Notes: generated by a model not told the origin, from the sequence alone. Counted from the first letter of the stretch, positions 45,818-62,112 are shown. The stretch is 64,000 nucleotides of DNA from Bacillota bacterium (GCA_009784185.1 WRCD01000002.1:132935-196934), one strand, 5' to 3'. Numbers and translations are program-made.

Positions 45818-45824
45818 TGCTGTT

Positions 45825-45935
45825 GTCATTGCGAGTTGCTCCAGCGAAGCCATTCAAACGAAGCAATCCCCTGGGTAGAAATTCTGTCGATGGGATTGCT
45901 TCGTTAGAAGGAGCAGGAAGCAGTCTCGCAATGAC
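45825..45935. repeat. Family-2 palindromic element, full copy (111 bp), in the nrdD-nrdG spacer
   Basis: Outer stem GTCATTGCGAG / CTCGCAATGAC. Inner stem AACGAAGCAATCCC / GGGATTGCTTCGTT. 21-nt loop. Followed by AGCGTTTTT. Confidence 0.85.
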
Positions 45936-47345: not shown

Positions 47346-47373
47346 TTCCCCTCTAACTTAGAGGGGAATTTTG
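47346..47373 (+). terminator. Hairpin (family-1 hairpin-1-only copy, reverse orientation) plus T run
   Basis: TTCCCCTCT-AACT-TAGAGGGGAATTTT directly after the stop. Only about 25 nt before the tkt TTG start, so probably leaky. Confidence 0.5.
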
Positions 47374-47396
47374 TAATGTGATAAAAGGGGTAATAT

Positions 47397-49391
47397 TTGG
47401 AACAAGACAACAAAGCAGTAAACACAATAAGGGTGCTGGGGCTGGACCAGATTACAGCCGCTAAAAGCGGACACCCGGGCATGGTGCTTAGTGCGGCACC
47501 TGTTTTGTATGCGCTGTTTAAAGACCATCTGGTGCTGGACAGCAGTAAGCCCGGCTGGTTTAACCGCGATAGGTTTGTGTTAAGTGCGGGGCATGGCAGT
47601 GCGCTTTTGTATAGCACTCTTCATTGTTTTGGATTCAACATAAGCATGAATGACCTTAAACAGTTCAGGCAAACCGGCAGCCGTACGCCCGGCCATCCGG
47701 AGCTTGACATGAGTATCCCGATTGAATGCGCAACCGGGCCATTAGGGCAAGGCATAAGCATGGGTGTTGGAATGGCTTTGACGGAGAAACATTTGTCTGC
47801 TAAGTTTAACAAGCCAAACCTGAATATTGTTGACCATTACACATATGTGCTTGTCGGTGACGGAGACCTGATGGAAGGTGTAAGTTATGAGGCAATAGAG
47901 CTGGCCGGCGTACACAAGCTTAACAAATTAATTGTGCTGTACGACAGCAACGAGCACACCATTGAGGGAAGAACAGAAATAGCAGGCCTTAACCAAACCA
48001 GACAGCGTTTTGAAGCCGCCGGCTTTAATGTGATTGAGGTAATAGACGGCAACGACACAGTAAAAATAAGCAAGGCTATTGCTGAGGCTAAAAAAAGCAA
48101 AGACAAACCGAGTATTGTAGTTGTAAACACGCAAATCGGCTTTGGAAGCCATGTAGTTGATAACATAAAAAGTCATGGCACGCCGTTTACCTTAGATGAA
48201 ACTCAAGCAGTACGAAGTAATTTTGGATTGACTGATAAACCGTTTACTGTGCCGGCTGATGTATATAAAACCTGCAAAACGGACATAAGCACACGCAGCC
48301 ATGCGGCACGCAAAAACTGGGATAGTTTAATTAAAACATATAAGACTAAGTTTAAAAAAGAATATAAGCAGCTGTTTAACAATCAGTCGGTATCTGCAGA
48401 GAAATGTATAACCAGCCTTAAGTCCACAAGTGATATGGCAACGCGTGATGCCGGGCACCTGGTGCTTAACTATATTGCCGGGCTTCCTATTAACCTGATT
48501 GGAGGTTCTGCCGATTTGGCGCCTGCCACTAAGGCCTTTCTGGCGGGTGAAAAGAGTTTTTCAGCCGTTAATCCAACAGGCAGAAATATTCACTTCGGAG
48601 TTCGTGAATTTGGAATGGCGTGCATAACAAACGGAATGATACTGCACGGCGGGCTTAAAGCGTTCTGCTCAACCTTCTTTGTTTTTGCGTGCTACCTGAG
48701 GCCCGCAATGAGGCTGGCAGCACTAATGAAAACGCCAAGTGTGTTTATATTCAGCCATGACTCGCTTTATGTGGGGGAGGATGGAGCAACGCATCAGCCG
48801 GTGGAGCAGCTGGAGTCTATAAGAATTATACCGGGCATGAGTCTGTTTAGGCCATGTGACTTAAACGAAACGGCAGGTGCATATGAGGCGGCTTTTAATT
48901 CTAATGAAGGCCCAACCAGCATTGTGTTGTCGCGGCAGACATTGCCGTACCTTAAGGGTTCTGCCGGCGGCACTTTGCAAGGCGGGTATGTACTGCACAA
49001 GGAAACCAGCCAGTTAAACATAGTGCTGGTTGCAACAGGCGGAGAGGTTGGGCTTGCGGTGCTGGCTAGAACCGAGCTTGTTAAAAAAGGCTATGGTGTG
49101 CGCGTGGTTAGTATGCCGAACAGGGAACTGTTTCTGCGGCAGCCGGAAAAATATAAGGCCGGTGTGCTGCCGGCTGATTGTGAGAGCATAATGGTTATTG
49201 AAGCCGGCACAAGCCATGGCTGGTATCCAATTGCCGGGCAATACGGGTTGGTGGTTGGAGTAGATGACTTTGGCAAATCCGGACCGGGCAAAGAAGTATA
49301 CGAGAGTTTCGGTTTTAGTGTAGACAACATAGTTAAACAGGCTGAGGCACTTATAAAGAAGAACAAGAGCATAGTAAAAAGCGTGGTGTAA
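47397..49391 (+). CDS. tkt: Transketolase
   Basis: AAAGGGG SD then TTG start. SGHPGMVLSAAP, GDGDLMEGVSYEA and GEDGATHQPVEQL motifs. 664 aa. Confidence 0.95.
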   Translation: MEQDNKAVNTIRVLGLDQITAAKSGHPGMVLSAAPVLYALFKDHLVLDSSKPGWFNRDRFVLSAGHGSALLYSTLHCFGFNISMNDLKQFRQTGSRTPGHPELDMSIPIECATGPLGQGISMGVGMALTEKHLSAKFNKPNLNIVDHYTYVLVGDGDLMEGVSYEAIELAGVHKLNKLIVLYDSNEHTIEGRTEIAGLNQTRQRFEAAGFNVIEVIDGNDTVKISKAIAEAKKSKDKPSIVVVNTQIGFGSHVVDNIKSHGTPFTLDETQAVRSNFGLTDKPFTVPADVYKTCKTDISTRSHAARKNWDSLIKTYKTKFKKEYKQLFNNQSVSAEKCITSLKSTSDMATRDAGHLVLNYIAGLPINLIGGSADLAPATKAFLAGEKSFSAVNPTGRNIHFGVREFGMACITNGMILHGGLKAFCSTFFVFACYLRPAMRLAALMKTPSVFIFSHDSLYVGEDGATHQPVEQLESIRIIPGMSLFRPCDLNETAGAYEAAFNSNEGPTSIVLSRQTLPYLKGSAGGTLQGGYVLHKETSQLNIVLVATGGEVGLAVLARTELVKKGYGVRVVSMPNRELFLRQPEKYKAGVLPADCESIMVIEAGTSHGWYPIAGQYGLVVGVDDFGKSGPGKEVYESFGFSVDNIVKQAEALIKKNKSIVKSVV

Positions 49392-49406
49392 CCCGCGCTT
49401 TTTATT
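49373..49406 (+). repeat. Direct repeat copy 1 (tkt 3' end plus terminator hairpin)
   Basis: AGTAAAAAGCGTGGTGTAACCCGCGCTTTTTATT encodes ..VKSVV* of Tkt, with the stop in the hairpin loop. Stem is GCGTGG/CCGCGC with one G-U pair. Confidence 0.85.
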
Positions 49407-49419
49407 TTACAAAAGGGTA

Positions 49420-49448
49420 TTGCATTGTGTCCGTTTGTGTTGTATACT
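49420..49448 (+). promoter_or_regulatory. Sigma-70-type promoter placed for a leaderless transcript of the 597-aa orphan gene
   Basis: TTGCAT (49420-49425), 17-nt spacer, TATACT (49443-49448), then 6 nt to ATG 49455. Confidence 0.5.
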
Positions 49449-49454
49449 TTGTGC

Positions 49455-51248
49455 ATGGAAAAAGAAGAGAATGAACTGGACGCAAGTGCAATGCAGAACG
49501 AGCTGCTTAGTCTGGCGGCAAAAGATTTTGCCGGCGTAGAAATTGCTATACCGGTTTACAACAAAAACGGGAATCTTAACTGGCCGCAAAACATGTTTGG
49601 CCCGGACCCTAAGTACGCTGCAGAAGTGAGAGAAAACTTAAAAAAATACGGACGATTGGTAGAAGGCAGTCCCGAACTGGAAGAGTACTTTATAAGCATT
49701 TTAGAAAACTGGCGTCCGGATGACAGTCGTCGCGGTTTTCACGGCGAAGGGGCATCAGAAGCGTATGATAACGCACGGGATGAGGGGCTCGTTACCGATG
49801 GAGAAACTTCCGCCTTTGCAGCCACTTATATCCTTAAGTTTATTACTGAAAATAAGGTTAACCCTGAGTTTGTGCAGGATATTTTTACGCAAATCTGGGA
49901 AGATTCGGTAATGCTGCTGGACTACAAAACGGATGAGTTGAAGCGCACCATAGGAATCAGGGGACGTTTTTTGGGGGAAGACTCCGATGCCGTAGCACCG
50001 ATGCAGCGGATGCTGGATAACATCAAGAAGGATTGGGAGGACGACCTGCTGGAAGTTGCTCGTCAACTTTTTGGTGCTGAAAATCCTGCATATGACCATA
50101 CAAGGCTGGAGTCCTTGCACCTATACAATGTTGCGCGCCAAAAGGGCTGGCGCACGCCCGAGGGAAGTGTTGAGGATAAGTTATCTAAGCTTGTATTAAC
50201 CTTTTGTAAAAACACCGTTGTATATTGGTCTGCGCCGGAAAACATAAGCCGGATACCGGTTGAGGACAGAGACATGCTGCTGGATTGCATTCATTACTTA
50301 AAAGACCCTGTGCGTGATTTTAAGCCTGAGGAATACAGCAGAAACCTGCCTGCCATAGTTAGTAATAGCAACCTGCCGAGTGCGGCACAGTCTTTTGCAG
50401 TGGTGCAGAAAAACCTGAATGCGGTTAATGTAAAAACCCTGGATGGCGACTATGTAAGCAAATGGGCTAAGGCGGGCGAGATATCACGATATTACGGTCT
50501 TCGTACTCAAGTAAAAATGTCAAAGTTAATGACAGATGAAGCTGCAACCGGATTTCTTTTAGAACTTTTAAAAGACGAAGACAGGGATGGAGAATGTGAT
50601 GTACACGAGCAACTTGTGGAGCGTGCCAGCGACCCGGCAATACGGCTGGAACATTTAAAAAAGAGTTATGGTTTCGGCTATGACTTTAAAGGAATAGATG
50701 AGGCGTATGCTGTGCTTGCATACGATGTGAAAGCCGGCAAGTATTCAACCGAAGAGATTTTAGGCATGAGCGAAGCCGAGCAACAGGTTGTTTTAGCTAT
50801 ACTTGAGCGTAATGCTCATAGAATGAACCAGGATGGAACAGACAGATTACAGGATTTGAAAAACATAATTAACCATAACAATACACCATTAGAAAATGTA
50901 AAAACTCCGTTTGGCGGAAAAGTGCTTAAGGCATACATTACTACCTTGGGAGAATATGGCGGATACGATGATTTGCTTGATGCAATAGACTTGGCACTTG
51001 AGTCCGGCACAAAAGAAGTTTCGGCAAAGCTGATGAAATCAAAGGTTGTTTCAGTCGGTTCATATCATCGCAGCAAAATAGACAAAGCAAAAGCAAAAGG
51101 TGAAGAGATAAGCGAATACCACACTGAACATTTAGCAAGGCTTCAGCCATATGTTGACAAGCTAAGCGAGATGGTTAAGGCAGAATGGTACGCATCAAAC
51201 CTGCCTCCCAAAGAGCCTGAAGACAAAACTAAACAACATGGAGAGTAA
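49455..51248 (+). CDS. Hypothetical acidic soluble protein (597 aa from ATG 49455; 607 aa from TTG 49425)
   Basis: Long uninterrupted ORF with no TM or signal peptide. No motif recognised by eye. Flanked by direct repeats. Confidence 0.6.
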   Translation: MEKEENELDASAMQNELLSLAAKDFAGVEIAIPVYNKNGNLNWPQNMFGPDPKYAAEVRENLKKYGRLVEGSPELEEYFISILENWRPDDSRRGFHGEGASEAYDNARDEGLVTDGETSAFAATYILKFITENKVNPEFVQDIFTQIWEDSVMLLDYKTDELKRTIGIRGRFLGEDSDAVAPMQRMLDNIKKDWEDDLLEVARQLFGAENPAYDHTRLESLHLYNVARQKGWRTPEGSVEDKLSKLVLTFCKNTVVYWSAPENISRIPVEDRDMLLDCIHYLKDPVRDFKPEEYSRNLPAIVSNSNLPSAAQSFAVVQKNLNAVNVKTLDGDYVSKWAKAGEISRYYGLRTQVKMSKLMTDEAATGFLLELLKDEDRDGECDVHEQLVERASDPAIRLEHLKKSYGFGYDFKGIDEAYAVLAYDVKAGKYSTEEILGMSEAEQQVVLAILERNAHRMNQDGTDRLQDLKNIINHNNTPLENVKTPFGGKVLKAYITTLGEYGGYDDLLDAIDLALESGTKEVSAKLMKSKVVSVGSYHRSKIDKAKAKGEEISEYHTEHLARLQPYVDKLSEMVKAEWYASNLPPKEPEDKTKQHGE

Positions 51249-51279
51249 ACAAAGCGTGGTGTAACCCACGCTTTTTATT
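51244..51279. repeat. Direct repeat copy 2 (bidirectional terminator)
   Basis: AGTAAACAAAGCGTGGTGTAACCCACGCTTTTTATT. The 29-nt core 51251-51279 matches 49378-49406 with 1 mismatch. It retains the GTGGTGTAA codons of the tkt end in a non-coding context. Confidence 0.85.
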
Positions 51280-51280
51280 A

Positions 51281-51619
51281 TTATATAACCTCTATCTTTA
51301 TCGTTACAACGCCGTATCTCTTTTCTTCTTCCGGAGAGTAAATCTTGTAGCATTCGTTAACTATCTCGTCAGGCGATGACCCGTCAAATCCCAGTTCTGT
51401 TGCGGGTATTGTTTCGCATATTTCATAAAACGACTTAAAGCTGATAATCTCAGTGATTTGTGTGATGCACTTTTCTGTTAACTCGGGACGCAGCAGAAAG
51501 GTGAGCGTGTCTCCAATTTTAAAATTGCGCCGTTTTTCATCATTCAGTCTGATTTCGTACAGCTTAGCACCGCTTTTGATTAGCTCAAAATGCGGCTTTT
51601 CTATTCTGACTGTGTGCAT
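51281..51619 (-). CDS. ASCH (PUA-like) domain protein
   Basis: GAGGAG SD. MHTVRIEKPHFELIKSGAKLYEIRLNDEKRRNFKIGDTLTF resembles ASCH-domain N-termini (..F..I..G.KT.E.R....k..GD.l.f). 112 aa. Confidence 0.55.
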   Translation of the reverse strand: MHTVRIEKPHFELIKSGAKLYEIRLNDEKRRNFKIGDTLTFLLRPELTEKCITQITEIISFKSFYEICETIPATELGFDGSSPDEIVNECYKIYSPEEEKRYGVVTIKIEVI

Positions 51620-51639
51620 AGGTTTTACTCCTCGAATAA

Positions 51640-51766
51640 AATTCTCCTTTAAGATAAAGGAGTACCCCGAAGGGGGGAGGTATGTGAAATAGATGGAAAA
51701 GCAATAAGACTGGCTTTATCACATACCCCGCTGCTCCGCAGCACCCCTTTATCTTAAAGGGGAATT
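51640..51766. repeat. Family-1 two-hairpin element, inverted dimer (MITE-like, 127 bp)
   Basis: Left unit 51640-51687 and right unit 51719-51766 (reverse complement) flank a 31-nt centre. GGTATGTGA / TCACATACC also pair. Confidence 0.85.
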
Positions 51767-51803
51767 ATTGGTTTGTCCGCCTTTGCTGGGGGAATTTTTC
51801 TGA

Positions 51804-54800
51804 TTACTCACTAGCCAGCTTTTTCAGTTTAGCAAGCAACGCAATACTATCCTGCTTGCTTTTTTCAATCAGTGCATCGGCCTCTTTGGGGTTGTTTTTA
51901 TAAAGGTTTGCAAATCTGCGCTCGCTCAGCACATATTCCTTATAATCGCCCGTAACCGGCGGGCTATCGAGTATTAGCGGATTTTTACCCTGTGCTGCAA
52001 GCTCCGGATTGTATCTGAATAAATTCCAGTATCCGCACGCCACAGCCTTGCGCATCTGCAGGTTTCCGTTGCTCATATCTATTCCTTGTTCAATGCAGGT
52101 GCTATACGCAATTACAATGCTTGGGCCCTTGTGCGCTTCCGCTTCACGGAGCGCCTGAAGCGTCTGGTTCATGTTTGCTCCCATTGCAACCTGCGCCACA
52201 TATACGCCGGGATACGCCATTGCCATAAGCGCAAGGCTCTTTTTTGCGCTCTGCTTGCCGCCGTTTGCAAACTTAACCACGCTTCCGGCAGGCGTTGCCT
52301 TGCTGGCCTGTCCGCCGGTGTTGCTGTATACTTCGGTATCCAGCACAAGAATGTTTATATCACTGCCTTTAGCAAGAACATGGTCAAGGCCTCCGTAGCC
52401 AATGTCGTACGCCCAGCCGTCGCCGCCTATGCACCATACCGATTTTTTAACAAACAGGTCGCGGTTTGCCAGGATGGTTTCGGCCGCACCGTCTGCTGTG
52501 CCGTTACGGGCAGTTTTGTATCCCTTGGTAAGCAGAGGGTAGTTTATTTCTGTTTCAAGTGCTGCTGCTAATTTTGCCGAAGCAATTTTATTCTCATTCT
52601 CGTTTTCATAAGTCCGCATCCATTCTTTCAGCTCGGGTGAACTTTTAGCCTTTAGCTCAATTGCTTTTTCGGCAAATCCAAATAGCTGCTTAACTCGCGC
52701 ATCCAATGCAAGCTTAATGCCAAATCCGAACTCGGCGTTGTCCTCAAACAAACTGCTTGCCCAAGCCGGACCCACGCCGCGCTTATTTGTGCTGTACGGG
52801 CATGAAGGGTAACTTCCTCCGTATATGCTGGTGCAGCCGGTTGCGTTTGCAATTATCATCCTATCACCAAACAGCTGACTTACCAATTTGATATACGGTG
52901 TTTCTCCGCAGCCGGCACACGCACCGTTAAACTCAAAGTACGGCTTTAAAAACTGACTGTCTTTTACAGTGATACCCGTAGTTGCCGGATTGTCTATGTT
53001 TTTGTAGAAATTATAGTTTTCTGTTTCTGTTTTGAACAATGCTGTGTCAGCGTTCATTTCAAGTGCCTTTATCTTGGTAGGGCATACATTAACACACGCT
53101 CCGCAGCCTGTGCAGTCCAGCGGGCTGGTCTGCAGGCGGAACTCGTATCCGGGCTTGCCCGTTGCAGGCAAGGTAACTGCTGCGCTTTTTTCTTTTTGAT
53201 TTTTTGTCACTAAATATGGCCTTATTGCCGCGTGCGGACAAACAAATGAACAAAAATTGCATTGAATACAATTTTCCGGCTTCCATTCGGGGATGCTGCT
53301 GGATATGCCGCGCTTTTCAAATCTGGTGGTGTCGGTTGGGATTCTGCCGTCGGCGGTAAACGCAGATACGGGCAATTTGTTTCCTTCAAGCCTTGCAATC
53401 GGTTTCATATTGTTGATGCAAAACGGTGTGTAATCATCTGATACGGTTGTATCAATTGTGTCTTTGGCGTTTTTCCAAGCTTCGGGTATTTTAACTGCAA
53501 CAAGCCTCTCCCCGGCTAAAGCAATTGCCTTGTAGTTTTGCTCCAATACCTTTTCGCCCGCTTTGGCGTAACTCTTTTTTGCGGCATCACGCATAAGTTC
53601 TTTTGCTTTAGCGTAGTCCATTATTTTGGATAACTTAAAAAACGCAGACTGCATAATGGTGTTTATTCTGCCGCCCAGGCCCAATTCATGTGCAATGACA
53701 TTTGCGTCAATTGTGTAGAACCTGGCCTTTTTATTATAAATCTGCCGCTTTAGGCTTGCAGGCAGTTCCTGCTCAAGCTCGGCAATGCTCCAGGGGGTGT
53801 TTAACAAAAATGTGCCGCCCGGCGCAAGTTTAGCCAGCAAATCGTATTTGCCTATATACCTGCTGTTGTGGCAGGCTAAAAAGTCGGCTTGCTCAATTTC
53901 ATAGGTGCTTTTTATCGGCTTGCTGCCAAACCGCAGGTGAGAAATTGTAATACTTCCGCTCTTTTTGCTGTCGTATACAAAATAGGCTTGAGCGTATTTG
54001 TTGGTGTTATCGCCTATAATTTTGCAGGCGTTTTTGTTTGCGCTTACGGTTCCGTCACTGCCTAGGCCGAAAAACATACAATTGGTGTTGCCTGTGTCCG
54101 GCAGATGAAACTCCGGCACGGCCAATGAAGTTTTTGATATATCATCATTAATTCCAACAGTAAAATGGTTTTTGGCTTTTACTCCGGTGTTGGCTAAAAC
54201 TGCCATAATCATAGCGGGGTTAAACTCCTTGCTGCCAAGGCCGTATCTGCCGCCCAGCACCTTAATGCCGGATTTGCCGGATTCCAACATCGCGGTGCAT
54301 ATATCTGTGTACAGTGGTTCACCGGCACTGCCAGGCTCTTTAGTCCGGTCAAGTGCAATAACCGTTTTTACGCTTGCGGGAAGCACCTTTACAAAGCCGG
54401 CTATATCAAACGGGCGGTATAGCCGCACTTTAACGAGGCCCGCTTGCTTGGTGCCGGTTTTGTTGTAATGAGTTAATGTTTCTTCTATCGCCTCACAAGC
54501 ACTGCCCATGGCTACAATTACGGTTTCTGCCTGCTTGCTGCCAAAATATTCAAACGGAGCATAGCCTCTGCCCGATAGTTTCTTAAATTCTGCACAGGTT
54601 TTAACAAATTCTTTATAAACAGCGTTGTAATACGGGTTGCACGCTTCACGGTTCTGGAAAAACACATCCGGGTTTTGAGCGGTGCCTTGCTGATGCGGAT
54701 GCTCCGGATTAAGTGCTCTGGCTCTGAACTCGGCCATTTTCTCGTACGGAAGCAGATATTTTGCGTCATCTATGGTTAATGTGCTGATATTGCTTATTTC

Positions 54801-55328
54801 ATGGCTGGTTCTGAAACCGTCAAAGAAATGCAGAAACGGCACTCTGGTCTTTAATGAAACCAACTGGCTGATAATTGCAAAATCATGTGCTTCCTGAACG
54901 TTGTTGCTTGATAGCATTGCAAAGCCCGTTTGCCTGCAGGCCATAACGTCCGAGTGGTCGCCGAATATTGACAGAGCATGGGTGCTAAGCGCACGTGCAG
55001 TTACATGAATTACGCATGGCAATAATTCGCCCGAAATCTTGTACATATTAGGAATCATTAAAAGAAGCCCCTGGCTGGCAGTAAAGGTTGTTGCAAAACC
55101 GCCCGCAGCCAGTGCACCGTGCAATGCGCCGGCAGCACCCGCCTCGGACTGCATTTCAACCACGCTCATGGTGGTACCAAAAACATTCAGTTCGCCGCGG
55201 CTGGCCATTTCGTCACAGACTTCCGCCATTGGCGAACTTGGCGTGATTGGGTAAATGGCCGCAATTTTGTTTAACAAATATGCTGCTTTTGCCGCAGCCG
55301 TATTTCCATCCAAAGTTTCTTTTTTCAT
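51804..55328 (-). CDS. nifJ: Pyruvate:ferredoxin (flavodoxin) oxidoreductase
   Basis: AAGGAG SD. 1174 aa. Two 4Fe-4S ferredoxin motifs (CIQCNFCSFVCPHAAIRP, CTGCGACVNVCP). TPP-binding region GGDGWAYDIGYGGLDH. Confidence 0.95.
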   Translation of the reverse strand: MKKETLDGNTAAAKAAYLLNKIAAIYPITPSSPMAEVCDEMASRGELNVFGTTMSVVEMQSEAGAAGALHGALAAGGFATTFTASQGLLLMIPNMYKISGELLPCVIHVTARALSTHALSIFGDHSDVMACRQTGFAMLSSNNVQEAHDFAIISQLVSLKTRVPFLHFFDGFRTSHEISNISTLTIDDAKYLLPYEKMAEFRARALNPEHPHQQGTAQNPDVFFQNREACNPYYNAVYKEFVKTCAEFKKLSGRGYAPFEYFGSKQAETVIVAMGSACEAIEETLTHYNKTGTKQAGLVKVRLYRPFDIAGFVKVLPASVKTVIALDRTKEPGSAGEPLYTDICTAMLESGKSGIKVLGGRYGLGSKEFNPAMIMAVLANTGVKAKNHFTVGINDDISKTSLAVPEFHLPDTGNTNCMFFGLGSDGTVSANKNACKIIGDNTNKYAQAYFVYDSKKSGSITISHLRFGSKPIKSTYEIEQADFLACHNSRYIGKYDLLAKLAPGGTFLLNTPWSIAELEQELPASLKRQIYNKKARFYTIDANVIAHELGLGGRINTIMQSAFFKLSKIMDYAKAKELMRDAAKKSYAKAGEKVLEQNYKAIALAGERLVAVKIPEAWKNAKDTIDTTVSDDYTPFCINNMKPIARLEGNKLPVSAFTADGRIPTDTTRFEKRGISSSIPEWKPENCIQCNFCSFVCPHAAIRPYLVTKNQKEKSAAVTLPATGKPGYEFRLQTSPLDCTGCGACVNVCPTKIKALEMNADTALFKTETENYNFYKNIDNPATTGITVKDSQFLKPYFEFNGACAGCGETPYIKLVSQLFGDRMIIANATGCTSIYGGSYPSCPYSTNKRGVGPAWASSLFEDNAEFGFGIKLALDARVKQLFGFAEKAIELKAKSSPELKEWMRTYENENENKIASAKLAAALETEINYPLLTKGYKTARNGTADGAAETILANRDLFVKKSVWCIGGDGWAYDIGYGGLDHVLAKGSDINILVLDTEVYSNTGGQASKATPAGSVVKFANGGKQSAKKSLALMAMAYPGVYVAQVAMGANMNQTLQALREAEAHKGPSIVIAYSTCIEQGIDMSNGNLQMRKAVACGYWNLFRYNPELAAQGKNPLILDSPPVTGDYKEYVLSERRFANLYKNNPKEADALIEKSKQDSIALLAKLKKLASE

Positions 55329-55361
55329 AATAAATCTCCTTAAAGACGGTTGTGCCGTCAG

Positions 55362-55410
55362 AATTCCCCTTTATGAAGGGGTGGATGCGCCAAAGGCGCA
55401 GACGGGGTAG
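55362..55410 (+). repeat. Family-1 two-hairpin element (copy D) in the nifJ/truA divergent region
   Basis: AATTCCCCTT-TATG-AAGGGGTGGA-TGCGCC-AAA-GGCGCA-GACGGGGTAG. Further hairpins at 55345-55359 and 55411-55429. Confidence 0.8.
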
Positions 55411-55446
55411 CCGACGCCATAGGCGGCGTAAAGATTTTATAAAACA

Positions 55447-55476
55447 AGTATAACACACCTTCAATTTTATAGTCAA
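55447..55476 (-). promoter_or_regulatory. Sigma-70-type promoter of nifJ
   Basis: On the minus strand: TTGACT (55476-55471), 18-nt spacer, TGtTATACT extended -10 (55455-55447). Implies a structured 5' UTR of about 110 nt. Confidence 0.45.
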
Positions 55477-55491
55477 ATAAAGCTGGTGTTG

Positions 55492-55500
55492 TGTTATAAT
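55492..55500 (+). promoter_or_regulatory. Extended -10 promoter element of truA (leaderless geometry)
   Basis: TGTTATAAT (TGn + TATAAT) at 55492-55500, then 6 nt (AAAGCC) to ATG 55507. No SD and no good -35. Confidence 0.5.
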
Positions 55501-55506
55501 AAAGCC

Positions 55507-56280
55507 ATGAGAATTAAACTTATAATTCAATATCTCGGCACCAACTATAGCGGCTGGCAAACTCAAGCCGGGCAGGACTCGGTGCAGGCTCAGCTTGAGC
55601 GGGCTGTTTTGGCTGTTACCGGCAAGCACAGCTGCGTTGAAGGCAGCGGGCGCACAGACGCAGGAGTTCACGCAGCGGCGCTAGCGGCGCATTTTGATGC
55701 CGACAGCCGGATTCCGCCCGAAAACTTTTGTCTTGCATTAAACGCCCATTTGCCGTCTGATATCCGGGTTTTAGACAGTTGCCAAGTTGACGAGAATTTT
55801 CACGCCAGATTTAGCGCAAAACGCAAAACCTATATATACAATTTTTACGTATCGCAAATCTCGCTTCCGTTGCTTAGCAGCACATATGCACACATTAAGC
55901 CGCCGTTTGATTTTACGCTTGCTCAGCAAGCCTGTAAGGCTTTTGTTGGTACGCATGATTTTAAGGCATTTATGAGCACCGGAAGCAACAAAAAAGACAC
56001 GGTAAGAACAATCTTCGATTGTTCATTAAACAAAAATTCCCCTCCTTGGAGGGGTGGCACGGAGTGCCGGGGTGGTTTAAATGGCGTTTACACGCTGCGC
56101 ATTACCGGCAACGGGTTTTTATACAACATGGTTCGCATAATTGCGGGTACTGTGTTTGAGGTGGGTGCCGGCAAAATTCCGCCGGAAAAGGTTGCAGATA
56201 TAATTGCCGCAGGCAATCGGAAACAAGCCGGCCAAACCGCCCCCGCCTGCGGGCTTACGCTGGAAAGTGTGGAGTATTAA
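55507..56280 (+). CDS. truA: tRNA pseudouridine(38-40) synthase TruA
   Basis: MRIKLIIQYLGTNYSGWQ.Q, GSGRTDAGVHA (catalytic Asp) and GNGFLYNMVRIIAG. Start moved from GTG 55486 to ATG 55507 to match typical TruA N-termini. Confidence 0.9.
   Translation: MRIKLIIQYLGTNYSGWQTQAGQDSVQAQLERAVLAVTGKHSCVEGSGRTDAGVHAAALAAHFDADSRIPPENFCLALNAHLPSDIRVLDSCQVDENFHARFSAKRKTYIYNFYVSQISLPLLSSTYAHIKPPFDFTLAQQACKAFVGTHDFKAFMSTGSNKKDTVRTIFDCSLNKNSPPWRGGTECRGGLNGVYTLRITGNGFLYNMVRIIAGTVFEVGAGKIPPEKVADIIAAGNRKQAGQTAPACGLTLESVEY
56035..56075 (+). repeat. Family-1 two-hairpin element (copy T), in frame inside truA
   Basis: AATTCCCCTCC-TT-GGAGGGGT-GGCAC-GGA-GTGCC-GGGGTGG, translated as NSPPWRGGTECRGG. Confidence 0.8.
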
Positions 56281-56297
56281 TATTTTCCGTTTTTCTC

Positions 56298-56326
56298 TTG
56301 ACAAACGGGCAGGTTTAATGTAAACT
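56298..56326 (+). promoter_or_regulatory. Sigma-70-type promoter of rplM-rpsI
   Basis: TTGACA (56298-56303), 17-nt spacer, TAAACT (56321-56326). Leaves a leader of about 105 nt. Confidence 0.55.
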
Positions 56327-56388
56327 ATCCAAAGTTATTTCATTGATACCAGCGAATTAGCCCTCGCTTAAGTCGTGGAACGGCAGTA

Positions 56389-56413
56389 CACCCCTTTATC
56401 TTAAAGGGGAATT
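56389..56413 (-). repeat. Family-1 hairpin-1-only copy in the rplM leader
   Basis: CACCCCTTT-ATCTT-AAAGGGGAATT is the same 25-mer as 51742-51766 apart from the first base. Confidence 0.8.
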
Positions 56414-56438
56414 ATTATATAAAAGGAACACAAGACTC

Positions 56439-56885
56439 ATGAAAACATATATGCCAAATGCCAAAAACACACCCGAGCGCAAGTGGTATGTGGTTGACGC
56501 AAGCAACATTCCGCTGGGCAGGCTTGCCAGCCAGGTTGCGGCGGTGCTGAGAGGCAAAAACAAGCCGACATATACACCACACGCTGATATGGGCGACCAT
56601 GTTGTGGTTATCAACGCCGGCAAGGTTGTGCTTACGGGCAACAAAATTAATCAAAAGACTTACAACTACCACACCTTGTACCCGGGCGGAGACAAACAGA
56701 TTCCGTATAGCAAGCTTATGGAAACTAAATCCGACTTTGTTGTGCATAGAGCTGTTAAGGGCATGATGCCTAAAAATTCTCTCGGAAAAAATATGCTTAA
56801 AAAGCTTAGAGTATACGCCGGAGCTGAGCATCCTCATGCCGCTCAAAACCCGATTGTATTAAATGTTAAAGGAGGCAGAGCATAA
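56439..56885 (+). CDS. rplM: 50S ribosomal protein L13
   Basis: [43 protein letters not shown]. 148 aa. Confidence 0.97.
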
Positions 56886-57391
56886 TGGCAGAAACAGTAA
56901 ACAAAAAACCGGCTGCAGAAAAAGCCGTTAAACCTGCCGCAGCAAAAGAAAAACAGGCCAAGCCCGCAAAATCTGCTGCCGCTCCTAAAGCTCCTAAGGG
57001 AGCCGCTCAGCACCCTGCAACCGGCAGGAGAAAAAAGGCCATTGCAAGAGTTAGGATTGTAACGGGAAGCGGAGTAATTACCGTAAACAAGCGCCCGTTG
57101 GATGAATACTTTGCGCTTGCCACCTACCGTCAGGTTGTACGTCAGCCGCTCGTGGTTTGCGGATGTGAAGCTAAATACGATATTTTTGTTAACTTAAACG
57201 GCGGCGGCCAAAGCGGTCAGGCAGGCGCTGTAAGACATGGTATTGCAAGAAGCCTGGTTAAAGTAAACGAGGCCGATTACAAGAAACTGCTTAAAACCGC
57301 AGGACTCTTAACTCGCGACCCAAGAGCCAAAGAGCGTAAAAAGTACGGCCTGCACAAGGCAAGAAAAGCAAGTCAGTTTAGCAAGAGATAA
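56885..57391 (+). CDS. rpsI: 30S ribosomal protein S9 with a K/A/P-rich N-terminal extension of about 38 aa
   Basis: TAATG overlap with rplM. The core is [14 protein letters not shown]...[27 protein letters not shown]. 168 aa versus about 130 typical. Confidence 0.95.
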
Positions 57392-57420
57392 AAAATCACC
57401 TTCGGGTGATTTTTTGTTTT
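57392..57420 (+). terminator. Rho-independent terminator
   Basis: AAAAAATCACC-TTCG-GGTGATTTTTTGTTTT. Confidence 0.8.
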
Positions 57421-57440
57421 AACAAACTGCTTAATTACAT

Positions 57441-57468
57441 TTACATAAAACTTTAACTATGATAAAAT
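57441..57468 (+). promoter_or_regulatory. Promoter of the KilA-N gene (leaderless geometry)
   Basis: TTACAT (57441-57446), 16-nt spacer including TGa, TAAAAT (57463-57468), then 7 nt to ATG 57476. Confidence 0.45.
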
Positions 57469-57475
57469 GTATGCT

Positions 57476-58318
57476 ATGAAAAACAAGATGCAAATAAAGG
57501 ACATTGATGTTGGTTATAAGAAACTTAACGACAAAGACTACATTTGTTTAACTGACATGGCAAGGTTTAAGAACGAGACCCACACCGGTGGTGTTATCAA
57601 TAATTGGTTGATTACACGATATACGATTGAATTTATGGGTATATGGGAAACAGTCAACAACCCCAGTTTTAATGTGTCCGAATTCCAGCACATTAGAAAT
57701 GAGAGTGGTAGTCAAAGTTACTTTATTTCAACAAGCCAGTGGATAGAAAAAACAAATGCGATTGGCATAATTTCGCAAGTTGGGCGTTATGGCGGCACTT
57801 ATGCTCACAAAGACATTGCGTTTGAATTTGCAACATGGTTAAGTCCGGAGTTTAAATACTGGATAATTTCAGAGTTCCAGAGACTGAAAGAACAAGAGCA
57901 AAAGCTTTTGGAGTGGAGCGCCAAAAGAGAGCTGGCAAAGATAAATTATCACTTACAGACTGATGCTATAAAAGAGAACTTAATAGTGCCGACATTAACT
58001 GAAAAACAAAGGAGTTTTGTTTATGCGGACGAAGCCGACTTGCTTAATGTTGCATTGTTTGGTAAAACGGCCGCAGATTGGCGAAAAGAAAATCCAAGTG
58101 CAAAAGGCAACATCCGAGATTTTGCAAGCATACATCATTTGCTAGTGCTTTCTAATATGGAAAGTTTGAATTCGGTTTTAATAAACAAGAAAATATCGCA
58201 AAGTGAGCGGCTTCTTGAGTTAAATGAGGTGGCGCGGAACCAGTTAAAAGTTTTAGCGGGCATAGAGAATAAACCGTTGTTGACTGCAGATAATAAGGCG
58301 GAACAAACTCATGAGTAA
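57476..58318 (+). CDS. KilA-N domain-containing protein
   Basis: DYICLTDMARFKN...NWL..R.TIEFMGIWE..NNP.F......GRYGGTYAHKDIAFEFATWLSPEFKYWIISEFQRLKE matches the KilA-N DNA-binding family as I recall it. In-frame ATG alternatives at 57467 and 57476. Confidence 0.6.
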   Translation: MKNKMQIKDIDVGYKKLNDKDYICLTDMARFKNETHTGGVINNWLITRYTIEFMGIWETVNNPSFNVSEFQHIRNESGSQSYFISTSQWIEKTNAIGIISQVGRYGGTYAHKDIAFEFATWLSPEFKYWIISEFQRLKEQEQKLLEWSAKRELAKINYHLQTDAIKENLIVPTLTEKQRSFVYADEADLLNVALFGKTAADWRKENPSAKGNIRDFASIHHLLVLSNMESLNSVLINKKISQSERLLELNEVARNQLKVLAGIENKPLLTADNKAEQTHE

Positions 58319-59249
58319 GATTTACGACAGCATTATAGTAGGCGGCGGGCCGGCAGGAATTACGGCGGCGGTTTATGCACTGCGTGCAGGGTTAAAGGTT
58401 CTGCTTATAGAGCGCCAGGTAATAGGCGGTCAGATTTTTATTACCGATTCTTTAAAAAATTATCCGGGCTTTACCGAAATAAGCGGAGCTGATTTCAGCA
58501 CAAAACTGATTGAACAGGCGGAAAGCCTGGGTTTGGAAATTATATATGATACGGCAGTTGAGTTTAAGCTCTCGGCCGAGGTAAAGGAAATTGTAACCGG
58601 CGGCAGCGGAACATATTTTGGTAAGACCGTCATATTAAGTATGGGCGCTTCCGCAAAAGGACTGAATCTTCCAAACGAGCAGAATTATATAGGTAAAGGT
58701 ATCAGCTATTGTGCAACCTGCGACGGTGCGTTTTTTAAAGATAAAACCGTTGCGGTTGTAGGCGGCGGCAACAGTGCCGTTCAGGATGTGCTTTACCTCT
58801 CTAAAATAGCTAAAAAGGTTTACCATATCCACCGGATGTCACCATTCAGGGCGGATGAGGAAAATCTGGCTGCCCTGCGTGCGCTTGTTGCAAAAAAGGG
58901 AAGCAATGTAGAGCAAGTGCTCAGTGTTAATGTTTTGGGGCTTGTTGGAAGCAAGAAGCTGGAGGGCATTAAGGTTCAGGCGCTCGGCTGCAAAACCGAG
59001 ACTCTTGCTGTAGACGGCGTGTTTGTTGCAATTGGGCGCGAGCCTCAAACCAACGCAATATCGGCTCAGATAAACCTTAACAAGCAAGGCTATATTGCAG
59101 CCGACCAGCGTATGCATACTAATATTGCCGGAGTGTTTGCGGCAGGCGATGTGGTTGACAAATCCCTCCGCCAGGTTGTAACCGCGGCCAGTGACGGAGC
59201 AATTGCAGCTACCGAAGCAAGCAGTTATTTGCGAAGCACCAAAAAATAG
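58311..59249 (+). CDS. trxB: Thioredoxin-disulfide reductase
   Basis: FAD motif VGGGPAG, redox centre CATCDG, NADPH motif VVGGGNSA. 312 aa. 8-nt overlap with the KilA-N gene. Confidence 0.93.
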   Translation: MSKIYDSIIVGGGPAGITAAVYALRAGLKVLLIERQVIGGQIFITDSLKNYPGFTEISGADFSTKLIEQAESLGLEIIYDTAVEFKLSAEVKEIVTGGSGTYFGKTVILSMGASAKGLNLPNEQNYIGKGISYCATCDGAFFKDKTVAVVGGGNSAVQDVLYLSKIAKKVYHIHRMSPFRADEENLAALRALVAKKGSNVEQVLSVNVLGLVGSKKLEGIKVQALGCKTETLAVDGVFVAIGREPQTNAISAQINLNKQGYIAADQRMHTNIAGVFAAGDVVDKSLRQVVTAASDGAIAATEASSYLRSTKK

Positions 59250-59255
59250 GAATGG

Positions 59256-60611
59256 GTGCAAAAATTGGAAACAAAACTTTTTGGCACGGATGGTATCCGT
59301 GGGATTGTTGGTGAGCGGATAACAGCCGGTGTTGTTTTCCGTGTAGGCAAGGCGCTGGCTGTTGCCTGCAGGGACAACGGCACAAAGTCTAAAATAATTG
59401 TGGGCAGAGATACCCGCACAAGCGGTGATATGTTGGAGAGCGCGCTGTGCAGCGGGCTGACCGCATTCGGCGCAGATGTAGTTAAGCTTGGAATTGTGCC
59501 TACTCCAAGCCTGCCGTATTTAATTACCAAAACCGGAGCAACCGCCGGCATTATGATAACAGCCAGCCACAACCCGCCGGGGCATAACGGGCTTAAGTTG
59601 TTTGGCTCCGACGGCGGCAAACTGCCATCTGATAAAGAGCTTGAAATTGAAACGATTATGGCAAATGAGGAAAGGTATCTGCCCAACAGTTATGAAAGCC
59701 TTGGGAATATCCATACAGACGAGGATTTATTAAAACTATATGCCGATTATATATTACAAAAGCTTGGAAATGTGGATTTGACCGGCGTGCGTGTTTATCT
59801 GGATTGCAGCAATGGTGCGGCATACAGGATTGCCCCATATATGTTTAAAACACTTGGTGCAACCGTAAAAACCATTAATGCATCTTCAAACGGCACGCTT
59901 ATTAATGTTAACTGCGGCTCGGAAAGCCCGCAGGAGCTGCAGAAAGCCGTTGTAAAAGAAAAGTTTGATATAGGTTTTGCTTTTGACGGTGATGCTGATA
60001 GAGTGGTTGCCGTTTCCGGCAGCGGAGAACTGGTACGCGGCGATGAACTGTTATATATTTTGGCCAAGGAACTGAAAAAACAAAATATATTAGCTGAAAA
60101 TACGGTTGTCGGCACCGTGCTTACAAATTTTGGGTTAGAAAATGCCTTAGTCAAACTGGGCATAAAACTGGAGCGCACTCCTGTCGGCGACAAAAAAATA
60201 AAAGATGTAATGATTAAAGATGGTTATAGCCTGGGCGGAGAAGAGGCCGGGCATATTATTTTGAGAGATTACAACTTCACCGGTGACGGTGTGCTTACTT
60301 CACTTATGATTACTAAAATTTTAAAAACAAATCATACCGGTCTTGAAGATGAAATTAAAACAATCGAAAAATATCCTCAGATACGGATTGATGTGCCGGT
60401 AAGTGATTTAGTTAAAAGCAAAGTTCTTAAAAGCACAGAGGTTGCTTCAAGCATTGAGGCTGCCGAAGCCGTTTTGGCTGAGCATGGAAGGGTAGTGGTG
60501 CGCCCGAGCGGAACGGAAAGTGTGTTTAGAATAATGCTTGAAGGTGAGAATATGGCACAACTAAGGCAGCTGGCAAAGAGTATTGAGGCGGCAGTGCTGA
60601 AGGTGAAATAA
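59256..60611 (+). CDS. glmM: Phosphoglucosamine mutase
   Basis: LFGTDGIRG, active-site TASHNPPGHNGLK, FDGDADR, GGEEAGH and RPSGTE. Start is GTG 59256 or TTG 59265. Confidence 0.93.
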   Translation: MQKLETKLFGTDGIRGIVGERITAGVVFRVGKALAVACRDNGTKSKIIVGRDTRTSGDMLESALCSGLTAFGADVVKLGIVPTPSLPYLITKTGATAGIMITASHNPPGHNGLKLFGSDGGKLPSDKELEIETIMANEERYLPNSYESLGNIHTDEDLLKLYADYILQKLGNVDLTGVRVYLDCSNGAAYRIAPYMFKTLGATVKTINASSNGTLINVNCGSESPQELQKAVVKEKFDIGFAFDGDADRVVAVSGSGELVRGDELLYILAKELKKQNILAENTVVGTVLTNFGLENALVKLGIKLERTPVGDKKIKDVMIKDGYSLGGEEAGHIILRDYNFTGDGVLTSLMITKILKTNHTGLEDEIKTIEKYPQIRIDVPVSDLVKSKVLKSTEVASSIEAAEAVLAEHGRVVVRPSGTESVFRIMLEGENMAQLRQLAKSIEAAVLKVK

Positions 60612-60616
60612 AACTA

Positions 60617-60645
60617 TTTACAAACCGCAAAAAGTGTTGTATAAT
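60617..60645 (+). promoter_or_regulatory. Sigma-70-type promoter of ung (leaderless geometry)
   Basis: TTTACA (60617-60622), 17-nt spacer, TATAAT (60640-60645), then 6 nt (GTAGCC) to ATG 60652. No SD. Confidence 0.5.
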
Positions 60646-60651
60646 GTAGCC

Positions 60652-61344
60652 ATGTTTAAGATAACCCGAAACTGGTACGAATTGTTACAACCTGAGTTTA
60701 ATAAGGATTATTACAAATCGCTCTCGGCCTATCTGGGCAGAGAATATAGCGGCTATACCATATATCCGAAACCCGAGCAGGTGTTTAACGCTTTAAACCA
60801 TGTTAAATATTCCGACGTTAAAGTGGTAATAATCGGACAGGACCCGTATCATCAGCCTGGACAGGCTCACGGGTTATGTTTCTCGGTTCTGGACCCGACG
60901 CCGCCGCCGCCAAGCCTGGTTAACATATTTAAAGAACTTGAAAGTGACTTAGGTCTTGTGCCTCCGGCATCCGGCAATCTTACACATTGGGCAAGGCAAG
61001 GCGTACTTCTGTTAAACTCTGTACTTAGTGTACGGGAATCAAATGCAAACAGCCATAAAGACAAGGGCTGGGAGCAGCTGACAGGTGCAATAGTGAGCTT
61101 GTTAAATCAGCGTAATGACCCGATTGTGTTTCTGCTGTGGGGCCGATATGCTAAAAAGATTGGGGAGGCGGTTACCAATCCGATACATAAGTGTTTGTAT
61201 GCGCCTCATCCAAGCCCGCTGTCTGCACACAACGGGTGGTTCGGGTGTAAGCATTTTTCTAAGACAAACGAAATTTTAAAAACATGGGGCAAAACAGAAA
61301 TAAACTGGAACTTAAACAATTACAAGACGGAGGAAATAAAATGA
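60652..61344 (+). CDS. ung: Uracil-DNA glycosylase (family 1)
   Basis: VVIIGQDPYH (water-activating loop), GVLLLN and HPSPLSA. The N-terminus MFKITRNWYELLQPEF aligns with known Ung starts. Confidence 0.93.
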   Translation: MFKITRNWYELLQPEFNKDYYKSLSAYLGREYSGYTIYPKPEQVFNALNHVKYSDVKVVIIGQDPYHQPGQAHGLCFSVLDPTPPPPSLVNIFKELESDLGLVPPASGNLTHWARQGVLLLNSVLSVRESNANSHKDKGWEQLTGAIVSLLNQRNDPIVFLLWGRYAKKIGEAVTNPIHKCLYAPHPSPLSAHNGWFGCKHFSKTNEILKTWGKTEINWNLNNYKTEEIK

Positions 61345-61931
61345 GCATGGGTAAAAGCTTAATGGGTTTAGAATCGCCAGAAATAATGCTGATAGTAGCG
61401 GTGTGTGTAATTATTGCGGTTGGAGCAATAGTTTTGATTGTAATTAAGCTGCGAAGTAAAGAAGATGTTGGATTTATACCAAAGTTTGAAAAAAAGCACT
61501 TTGAAGCTGCAAGCGTGACGCTTAACGAGCGTTATCTGCACCCCAAAGCCATGCAGTTTTATGACCGCCTTTGCGGAGCCATCAGTAAAGACTTTGTGGT
61601 TTTTCCGCAGGTGGGAGTTGACCAGCTTATGAAGTCTACCAAATCCAGAGTTGTAATCAATTCGGTATTAAGCGAGTACGTTGATTATGTTATCTTTGAC
61701 CGTAAGCGCATGAGGCCTATACTTGTAATTGATTTGCAGGACCCTACCGGTGACAACACCACATTCGGCGAAATGCACGACAATGTGCGTGAAGCACTGA
61801 AGGCAATTAAGCTGCCGGTGGTTGTGTATTATGTAGAGGGCGAGTACACAAGTGAGGACCTGCGTCTTGCAATTGCCGATTACCTTGACCCGCTTATGAT
61901 AATTGCAATGCGCAAACAAACCAAGATGTAA
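61341..61931 (+). CDS. Membrane-anchored DUF2726-like (restriction-endonuclease-fold) protein
   Basis: GGAGG SD. ATGA overlap with the ung stop. N-terminal TM IMLIVAVCVIIAVGAIVLIVI. FVVFPQV...YVDYVIFDRKRMRPILVIDLQD resembles DUF2726 (..vf.qV...vDFvl.d....p..aIElDd). Confidence 0.5.
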   Translation: MSMGKSLMGLESPEIMLIVAVCVIIAVGAIVLIVIKLRSKEDVGFIPKFEKKHFEAASVTLNERYLHPKAMQFYDRLCGAISKDFVVFPQVGVDQLMKSTKSRVVINSVLSEYVDYVIFDRKRMRPILVIDLQDPTGDNTTFGEMHDNVREALKAIKLPVVVYYVEGEYTSEDLRLAIADYLDPLMIIAMRKQTKM

Positions 61932-61960
61932 AAAAACACGCCCTGCAGGGCGTGTTTTTA
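61932..61960 (+). terminator. Rho-independent (bidirectional-looking) terminator
   Basis: AAAAAAACACGCCCTGCAGGGCGTGTTTTT. Confidence 0.8.
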
Positions 61961-62022
61961 GTAAACAAGTAACAGGGAACAGGCAACAACGGCGGGTCAC
62001 TATTGCTCCAACCGATAGCCAA

Positions 62023-62077
62023 AATTCCCCTTTAAGATAAAGGGGTGGCAAACACGAAGTGTTTGACGGGGTATATG
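62023..62077 (+). repeat. Family-1 two-hairpin element (copy C)
   Basis: AATTCCCCTTT-AAGAT-AAAGGGGTGG-CAAACAC-GAA-GTGTTTG-ACGGGGTATATGA. Confidence 0.85.
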
Positions 62078-62081
62078 AAAA

Positions 62082-62112
62082 ACAAAAACAGCCGTATTGC
62101 GGCTGTTTTTGT
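62082..62112 (-). terminator. Rho-independent terminator of the minus-strand gene pair
   Basis: On the minus strand: ACAGCCG-CAAT-ACGGCTGTTTTTGTTTTT, directly after the stop at 62113. Confidence 0.7.

Follow-up and report, generated by a model that had tools for sequence, protein, structure and literature searches.

The DNA analysed here, a 64-kb stretch at 45% G+C from a Bacillota/Firmicutes metagenome-assembled genome (MAG) and called the window throughout, carries several copies of a short repeat with two hairpins, and the locus raises the question of what this repeat is, whether it acts as DNA or as RNA, and how it came to be dispersed. An earlier note had counted seven copies and proposed that selection acts on their structure rather than on their sequence, either in RNA or in DNA recognised by a transposase or nuclease. 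What it overlooked is a conserved 3' tail, which is the third, covarying partner of hairpin 1. The repeat family behaves like a miniature mobile element and adds a novel variant to the known class II intrastrand-triplex repeats; on balance, we lean towards regarding the window repeats as non-autonomous copies, five intact and two decayed, of a mobile DNA element associated with genes of the DUF559 family.

The gene content of the window is that of an anaerobe, including pyruvate:ferredoxin oxidoreductase (PFOR), NrdD and the series truA-rplM-rpsI, and its TruA is 100% identical to a protein in NCBI/JGI/ENA. Six exact matches of the 9-mer AATTCCCCT are present in the window, all within 47.3-62.1 kb, and every repeat sequence that had been quoted was found at its place. 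A covariance model trained on unrelated metagenomic copies only and run over the whole 64 kb with filters off returned five full and two decayed copies and nothing else credible. These copies, with their model matches, and the gene that hosts the in-frame copy are as follows:

51640..51686, + strand: full copy, CTCC variant, reading AATT-CTCCTTT-AAGAT-AAAGGAG-TA-CCCC GAA GGGG-G-GAGGTAT-GTGA; left arm of an inverted tail-to-tail pair (match 51637-51686, 27.4 bits)
51720..51766, - strand: full copy, right arm of the inverted pair with the 51640 copy (match 51720-51769, 51.4 bits)
55362..55410, + strand: full copy, intergenic, separating the PFOR gene (51804-55328, - strand) from the divergent truA (match 55359-55413, 40.9 bits)
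56035..56077, + strand: full copy of consensus type, within the truA reading frame and in frame (match 56032-56078, 66.8 bits)
62023..62077, + strand: full copy in a convergent intergenic region, 92 nt past a DUF2726 gene and directly before a bidirectional terminator-like hairpin (match 62020-62077, 41.5 bits)
47341..47396, + strand: decayed copy with hairpin 1 CCCCTCT-AACTT-AGAGGGG, 20 nt without hairpin 2 and the remnant tail GGGGTAAT (18.7 bits)
56354..56416, - strand: decayed copy upstream of rplM with hairpin 1 intact, 26 nt without hairpin 2 and the remnant tail GGGCT (20.1 bits)
55507..56280, + strand: truA (tRNA pseudouridine synthase; PF01416, E = 1.5e-43), host gene of the in-frame copy

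The number seven thus stands as five full and two partial copies. The partial ones had been described as consisting of hairpin 1 only, both in reverse orientation; because the covariance model aligns both full-length, they look like decayed full copies, and whereas that at 56354-56416 does lie on the - strand, that at 47341 is better read on the + strand. The copies at 51640 and 51720 form a 127-bp unit (51640-51766) with AATT ends outward, tails inward and 33 nt between the tails; an inverted-repeat search reports it as 53-nt arms, 21 nt apart.

When folded with DNA parameters by a program that models hairpins only and no triplex, all five full window copies form two hairpins and an unpaired 3' tail (z = -2.3 to -5.7). 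As had been described, the stem of hairpin 2 differs in each of these copies, always pairs and closes a GAA, GGA or AAA triloop, and hairpin 1 shows paired changes. The proposal that selection acts on structure and not on sequence holds for hairpin 2, which is free in sequence and changes on both sides, but not for hairpin 1 and the tail; since these are strongly conserved in sequence, selection does not act on structure alone.

The 3' tail is a mirror of the purine arm of hairpin 1, with G answered by G and A by A or T, and is not the complement of anything. The copy at 55362, for example, has the tail GGGGTAG, which mirrors the purine arm GAAGGGG. The arms and tails correspond as follows:

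Purine arm ..GGAGGGG: tail GGGGTGG
Purine arm ..GAAGGGG: tail GGGGTAG
Purine arm ..AGAGGGG: tail GGGGTGT
Purine arm ..AAAGGGG: tail GGGGTAT

At the two variable positions, the arm-to-tail classes are hence GG to GG, GA to AG, AG to GT and AA to AT. Among 233 unique copies from metagenomes and phage contigs, triads of the type G*G-C or A/T*A-T are possible at these positions in 223 and 225 copies, respectively, compared with 170 +/- 4 and at most 187 in shuffles; the mutual information between arm and tail is 0.43-0.47 bit in register and 0.01-0.02 bit out of register. The tail still tracks the purine arm in the 30 copies whose 5' arm places a T across from G at hairpin 1's innermost position. 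Three-way changes are also seen. The window copy at 51640 (CTCC/GGAG/GAGG) combines C to T in the 5' arm with G to A in the purine arm and G to A in the tail, giving a T-A*A triad, and two of the loci fetched for comparison, which are cited here by L numbers, have CCCCC/GGGGG/GGGGG (L036 and L073).

As read from the sequences, this mirror covariation is the code and the strand polarity of a predicted antiparallel purine-motif (class II) intrastrand triplex. The class II order of pyrimidine arm, complementary purine arm and third arm is found in the five full window copies and in ~230 unique copies elsewhere, and the third arm is an antiparallel mirror, G over G and A or T over A. A family-agnostic scan for a pyrimidine arm, its perfect complement and a perfect mirror arm gave 10 matches at 6 places in the window, all of them elements, while the same scan of block-shuffled windows gave a mean of 0.06 matches and a maximum of 1. 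The earlier note could match the repeat to no named family; there is indeed no Rfam family, but a relative in design exists in the BoxC/PIT/TMECO class II intrastrand-triplex repeats. As a side observation, hairpin 1 of the - strand copy of the pair is palindromic and, 26 nt on along the + strand, GGGGAAT fits the mirror code too (51744-51796); this may be the remnant of a second, opposed copy using the same hairpin, with the fragment AATTCCCCC at 51788-51796 on the - strand.

Other roles for the tail fit the data less well. An outer helix AATTCCCC/GGGGTGGTT was rejected because the tail varies with the inner pairs of hairpin 1, its variants AGTG, ATGT, GTGT and GTTT being unable to pair with AATT, which is taken as constant here since the search pattern held it fixed. 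A direct repeat of GGGGTG(G) was ruled out as well, in that the TC..GA class has the tail GGGGTAG and not GGGGTGG. The G-rich purine arm and tail could instead form a G-quadruplex or another G-G structure, or the tail could serve direct protein contact, the hairpins alone being structural. Tetrads could in principle be assembled from the G tracts GG, GGGG, GG, GGGG and GG, and TMECO-like sequences could form quadruplexes that nuclear magnetic resonance (NMR) is needed to exclude (PMC4666352). However, a quadruplex requires neither an A-to-A/T register with the purine arm nor matched changes in the C-rich arm, yet three-way changes occur, and the related TMECO was found by NMR to be a triplex, not a quadruplex (PMC4666352). 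These alternatives to a triplex are therefore considered quite unlikely.

Beyond the window, the layout of the element from 5' to 3' comprises AATT, a pyrimidine arm CCCCTyy, a short loop, a purine arm rrAGGGG, TG, hairpin 2 (variable, G+C-rich and usually with a GNA triloop), C, and a tail GGGGT t1 t2 TT. Information content falls to zero just 5' of AATT and 4 nt past GGGGT; with borders so sharp, the element is a discrete module of ~42-55 nt. Copies were sought with the gapped pattern AATTCCCCT-N6-9-AGGGGTG-N8-24-CGGGGT. It matched at least 119 loci in JGI metagenomes, where 31 of the 80 matches listed come from the Ga012335x series, as does the termite-gut MAG named below, and 35 loci in IMG/VR viral contigs, several with 3-4 copies; the viral contigs bear portal, capsid and tail genes. 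The hairpin-1 loop of the window subfamily, TTAAGATAA, was not found in the viral contigs. Among representative genomes, hairpin 1 of the window type occurs only on 3 contigs of the termite-gut MAG Ca. Endomicrobium labiotermitis, whose copies are each full, with a hairpin-2 stem of their own and the common tail CGGGGTATGTGA. In this Endomicrobium MAG, a TMECO-like motif, CCCTCGCCCCTTGCGGGAGAGGGCAGGGTGAGGGG, directly follows an element copy (L004, ~1165-1215, - strand), and two triplex-type families therefore coexist there. Restriction-modification operons host copies as well, and the copies create spurious open reading frames (ORFs) with motifs such as HPAL..TPPxEGN.

A covariation check had also been proposed for this repeat, and 150 model-aligned copies from other loci show both pairing and covariation above shuffles: the share of cells that pair is 94.6%, whereas shuffles reach 81.9% and partners slid by 1-3 columns 54-62%, and the score for covariation is 0.303 compared with 0.101 in shuffles. 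Both sides vary in four of the five pairs of hairpin 2. Among 192 unique copies, hairpin 2 is closed by a GNA triloop in 122 and by AAA in 13; C-GNA-G is a classic, very stable DNA mini-hairpin. Some copies in L029 lack hairpin 2 and have a second loop of 3 nt (TTA or GTA). Head-to-tail arrays with a period of 48-49 nt were also observed (L056, 1549-1742; L067, 9636-9729). Between L166 and L168 (2418-2459), contigs otherwise 99% identical, a 42-nt hairpin-1 unit differs in copy number; the arrays therefore expand and contract.

The evidence favours action of the element as DNA, on a transiently single strand, rather than as RNA. Of the two options in the earlier note, it is thus the DNA recognised by a nuclease or transposase that is supported, and the RNA option that is disfavoured by orientation, in-frame copies, GNA triloops and the triplex code. 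If the element acted as RNA, the transcript hairpins would be a terminator, an exonuclease stabiliser or a regulatory signal, with the tail pairing elsewhere. Both hairpins can indeed fold in RNA too; in reverse reading, hairpin 1 precedes AATTTT or AATTATT and is caught by a terminator-like scan; local transcription runs in the sense direction of four of the five full copies in the window; and the 30 copies with T opposite G would be tolerable as an RNA wobble. Orientation relative to transcription, another check suggested earlier, was mapped across the larger copy set and shows no bias, with 43 sense and 35 antisense copies between co-directional genes and 31 sense and 36 antisense copies within ORFs, all by crude ORF calls; 16 copies lie between convergent genes and 3 between divergent ones. 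In-frame copies occur within ORFs in both orientations. The copies do not belong to the class of intrinsic terminators, as the reverse reading has only AATT(T/A)TT after hairpin 1, there is no sense bias and copies lie in ORFs. The tail covaries as a mirror, which Watson-Crick pairing leaves unexplained, and the helix with AATT (fixed by the pattern) fails, given the tail variants that do not pair with it. The loops are predominantly GNA triloops, not GNRA tetraloops, and RNA reportedly does not form purine-motif triplexes (PMC4666352). Rfam release 15 holds no matching family: at gathering score it finds in the window only the transfer-messenger RNA (tmRNA), and a permissive scan of 47000-62500 gave nothing relevant. 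Action as RNA is thus judged highly improbable. The tmRNA gene itself, at 38904-39260, encodes ANYNKPALAVAY as its tag peptide; Rfam scores it at 138.6 bits, and ARAGORN detects it as well.

The sharp borders, the unbiased orientation and the copies in frame within genes jointly suggest action at the DNA level. The truA copy at 56035 encodes NSPPWRGGTECRGG in a variable loop, where the closest TruA homologs (62% identity, 245-246 aa) are ~12 residues shorter, and a phage ORF of at least 2275 aa with Strawberry-notch-type helicase domains contains two in-frame copies, antisense. In-frame copies thus lengthen real proteins, here TruA, by ~14 residues.

As for what disperses the element, ORFs of ~157 fetched loci (~1 Mb) were clustered to find recurrent neighbour families, and DUF559 (PF04480, E = 1e-29) is one recurrent small family among them. 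A tblastn search found 9 DUF559 genes in the ~1 Mb of fetched loci; all 9 directly abut copies, and 6 show the order + copy with AATT outward, gene, - copy. A search from the protein side gave more than 2000 relatives, 132-134 aa long, from MAGs that belong to several phyla. Five of these loci were fetched, with contexts beside arsP, within type I restriction-modification operons, and beside jetD/rsgA; in all five, a copy ends 0-10 nt 5' of the ATG and a - copy overlaps the gene at its 3' end. DUF559 genes thus abut copies in 14 of 14 loci and are bracketed by inverted copies in most. The right-hand copy encodes the last ~15 residues of the protein (NHPALxGTPPxEGN), and the stop codon overlaps the terminal AATT in three of the five protein-side loci (L161, L162 and L166). 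The unit consists of a DUF559 gene of 125-140 codons between inverted copies with AATT outward and recurs, at ~450 bp, in unrelated contexts. In an alignment of six units, similarity begins at (A)ATTCCCC and stops at GGGGAAT(T), and the flanks are unrelated; the unit is therefore discrete. The motif D60, E71, D73 and H77 is invariant, and the closest solved structure is 3hrl, an N. gonorrhoeae DUF559 protein (E = 2e-15). DUF559, DUF2726 and Vsr form one PD-(D/E)XK clade, which includes a group I intron homing endonuclease (PMC3424549).

The pair at 51640-51766 is the frame of such a unit minus the gene, and the other window copies are single ends. The window set accordingly comprises gene-less derivatives only, with one inverted pair, four solo copies, of which two are decayed, and one copy in frame within truA. 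The DUF2726 gene of the window was rejected as the cognate nuclease, having no significant similarity to the DUF559 protein and an adjoining copy wrongly oriented for a unit; that this gene (61284-61931) ends 92 nt before the solo copy at 62023 is probably coincidence. DUF559 units were also observed between hsdM/hsdS and hsdR of type I systems (L161, L164-L168), and one in L029 (4164-6389, - strand) lies in one long open frame with an N6_N4 DNA methylase domain; the presence of units at restriction-modification genes may be due to targeting, or Vsr-like nucleases and methylases may be functionally tied. No paper linking DUF559 to repeats or triplexes was found in the literature on the repeat sequence, DUF559, ycjD and Vsr-like mobile genes.

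The association recurs in other lineages with other repeat sequences. Inverted TMECO-like motifs, specific to each lineage, lie on both sides of DUF559 genes or modules in Synechocystis sp. B12, Deinococcus sp. NW-56 and Pseudanabaena. A DUF559 module on a Pseudanabaena galeata plasmid (L173, 494-1093) has nested inverted TMECO-like motifs on both sides and lies in frame within an annotated 1621-aa ORF. The 3' end of the DUF559 gene ycjD of E. coli K-12 (L169, NC_000913.3 1346000-1356000; locus 5150-5480, - strand) reads into a BoxC-like hairpin, CACCCTCTCCCTGAAAGAGCGAGGGGG; past the gene lie a duplicated remnant of its own 3' end and then, ~170 nt downstream, a canonical BoxC/TMECO, CCCTCGCCCCTCTGGGGAGAGGGTTAGGGTGAGGGG. 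MG1655 has 23 TMECO copies (PMC4666352), and the chance of one lying within 200 nt of ycjD is, by a rough estimate, well under 1%. The gene occurs in 3378 out of 5426 complete E. coli genomes; those without it carry the eefRABCD operon at that site (PMC12817139), which makes the comparison unclean and led to the rejection of the sapF-fabI locus as an empty site. Remnants of the ycjD 3' end occur elsewhere in E. coli at only 1-2 places per genome, all local.

The following mechanism is proposed. Hairpin 1 would form on a single DNA strand, with hairpin 2 serving as a rigid turn, and the tail, folded back onto the purine arm in antiparallel direction, would supply the third, reverse-Hoogsteen strand (G*G-C, A*A-T, T*A-T) of a class II triplex. 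The DUF559 nuclease may recognise or nick the folded ends while the DNA is transiently single-stranded or extruded, and through the resulting break the unit, gene-less pairs or single ends could be copied into new sites. Target sites would include coding regions, in which in-frame survivors would persist.

Several observations weigh against this account. Triplex formation in cells, the action of DUF559 on the ends and the resulting movement are what we infer from sequence comparison, movement because an all-against-all BLAST of the fetched loci found no filled/empty site pair, only tandem copy-number changes (L166 versus L168, 42 nt). No target-site duplication is evident in the flank profiles, and a PD-(D/E)XK nuclease alone cannot join strands, so the mechanism of transposition is not obvious. 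No DUF559 gene was found by tblastn within the 64-kb window. The five protein-side loci are close homologs (at least 67% identity) of one subfamily, L166-168 have both flanking copies on the - strand, L016 and L056 carry copies on one side only, as caught by the scans made, and hairpin 2 is not the same at the two ends of a single unit, although the sequence on either side of it stays identical. The copy order is reversed in Deinococcus and Synechocystis. Furthermore, the four main arm/tail classes could represent few lineages, about six independent kinds of change underlie the covariation, and the TMECO triplex was undetected by in vivo dimethyl sulfate (DMS) footprinting, with no function found (PMC4666352).

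The repeats and the DUF559 gene may also be separate entities, the repeats persisting otherwise, as host-used or neutral sequences of the REP/BIME kind, and DUF559 being a free-standing homing gene that cuts gene-less inverted pairs and is copied into them by break repair, which would place it between two copies every time. The clade of Vsr and DUF559 includes a homing endonuclease of group I introns (PMC3424549), gene-less tail-to-tail pairs exist (window 51640-51766; L023 and L026), the gene is found in only ~9 of ~157 fetched loci, and a nuclease that lacks strand-transfer activity suits homing better than transposition. Against this, every canonical unit draws the end of its gene, stop codon included, from the right-hand copy, which suggests long co-evolution and not repeated insertion between copies; homing leaves the spread of short copies in ORFs and on phages unexplained, and the association recurs with other repeat sequences in distant phyla. 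We regard homing of a separate gene as rather unlikely and retain the mobile DNA element associated with DUF559.

A wider proposal, plausible but to our minds somewhat short of an even chance, is that DUF559 genes bounded by triplex-forming inverted repeats constitute an unrecognised class of very small (~450 bp) mobile elements in many phyla and phages, driven by a Vsr-like PD-(D/E)XK nuclease that would read a folded single-stranded DNA triplex and with BoxC/PIT/TMECO as non-autonomous relics. To our knowledge, no insertion sequence is as small as a unit of ~450 bp. DUF559, a very common domain of unknown function, is a candidate partner of the repeat, and the BoxC/PIT/TMECO repeats have been unexplained since the 1990s; a functional link would give DUF559 a role and BoxC/TMECO an origin and a route of spread. 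The comparative evidence from hundreds of copies points to an intrastrand DNA triplex, a structure whose cellular role is still doubted, being maintained by evolution.

The window has further features of its own. A second repeat family, TGTCATTGCGAG.., palindromic around GGGATTGCTTCG, occurs at 45824-45909 and 46355-46410 and flanks a radical-SAM (nrdG-like) gene at 45963-46718; similar sequences, GATTGCTTCG.., adjoin element copies in L003. A terminator-like hairpin of 29 nt, AAAGCGTGGTGTAACCC(G/A)CGCTTTTTATT, is nearly identical at 49378-49406 and 51251-51279, behind consecutive genes for transketolase and for a 607-aa protein without a Pfam match. Two + strand ORFs, 43-7392 (2449 aa) and 7549-23385 (5278 aa), fill the first 23 kb and hold no element copies. 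A KilA-N domain gene at 57467-58318, between rpsI and a thioredoxin-reductase-like gene, is an odd and possibly phage-derived insert in a housekeeping run.

Among known systems, the family resembles REP/REPIN-RAYT in having short structured repeats, singly and in inverted pairs, that are thought to be recognised as folded single-stranded DNA and that flank an associated single-copy gene. It differs in that the gene encodes a PD-(D/E)XK nuclease (DUF559) and not an HUH/Y1 enzyme, the hairpin has a third strand, copies also lie in genes, and there is no guide tetranucleotide of the GTAG type. The cognate gene of RAYT/IS200-like type suspected in the earlier note, or any Y1 gene, is absent from the recurrent neighbours, among which no search was aimed at it; the cognate candidate is the Vsr-like DUF559 instead. 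With Rickettsia palindromic elements (RPEs) and in-frame miniature inverted-repeat transposable elements (MITEs), the family shares short palindromic repeats tolerated in frame, here in truA and in the phage helicase-type ORF, whereas its sequence is unrelated and much shorter than that of RPEs, no target-site duplication is seen and an associated gene is present; we know of no gene associated with RPEs. Compared with classical MITEs, the inverted pairs match the ends of the gene-bearing unit, but the flank profiles show no duplication, the gene is not a DDE transposase, and the solo copies are single ends. The Vsr-like/EDxHD homing endonucleases, such as I-Bth0305I, are likewise small nucleases of the PD-(D/E)XK clade of DUF559 (PMC3424549) and selfish mobile genes. 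Those of the I-Bth0305I type sit in group I introns or split-intein loci (PMC3239194, PMC2677866) and lack structured flanking inverted repeats, whereas triplex-type repeats enclose the DUF559 gene, which extends into one of them.

The closest likeness in design is to the BoxC/PIT elements of E. coli and further Proteobacteria, reportedly described as class II intrastrand triplex motifs by Hoyne et al. in 2000, and to TMECO. All have on one strand the order of pyrimidine arm, loop, purine arm, loop and mirror G/T/A arm, the triad code G*GC, T*AT and A*AT, and dispersal as short repeats that also occur in inverted ('palindromic') pairs; the 3-nt second loop TTA of TMECO type A is shared by the minimal copies in L029. 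The TMECO pattern is CCCTCNCCC N3-6 GGGNGAGGG N3 GGGNGAGGG, and its oligonucleotides form a class II triplex by NMR and circular dichroism (PMC4666352). TMECO acts neither as a promoter nor as a terminator, has a link to local genomic instability and can be found in inverted pairs too, and Holder et al. 2015 found no common function of its flanking genes (PMC4666352). The window copies do not fit the TMECO pattern proper, with arms of 7-8 nt, another sequence and a second 'loop' of 14-22 nt that contains a hairpin. The family has 7-8 triads of CCCCTCC/GGAGGGG/GGGGTGG, compared with 9 triads of CCCTCNCCC/GGGNGAGGG/GGGNGAGGG in TMECO, and a conserved 5' AATT; the second loop of most copies is a hairpin of 12-28 nt, and the ITxF search of Holder et al. 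would miss the family because its loops span 1-6 nt. In contrast to TMECO and BoxC, the present family is found in Firmicutes, Endomicrobia, other MAGs and phage contigs and within ORFs, and it is associated with DUF559, whereas no gene association has been reported for TMECO.

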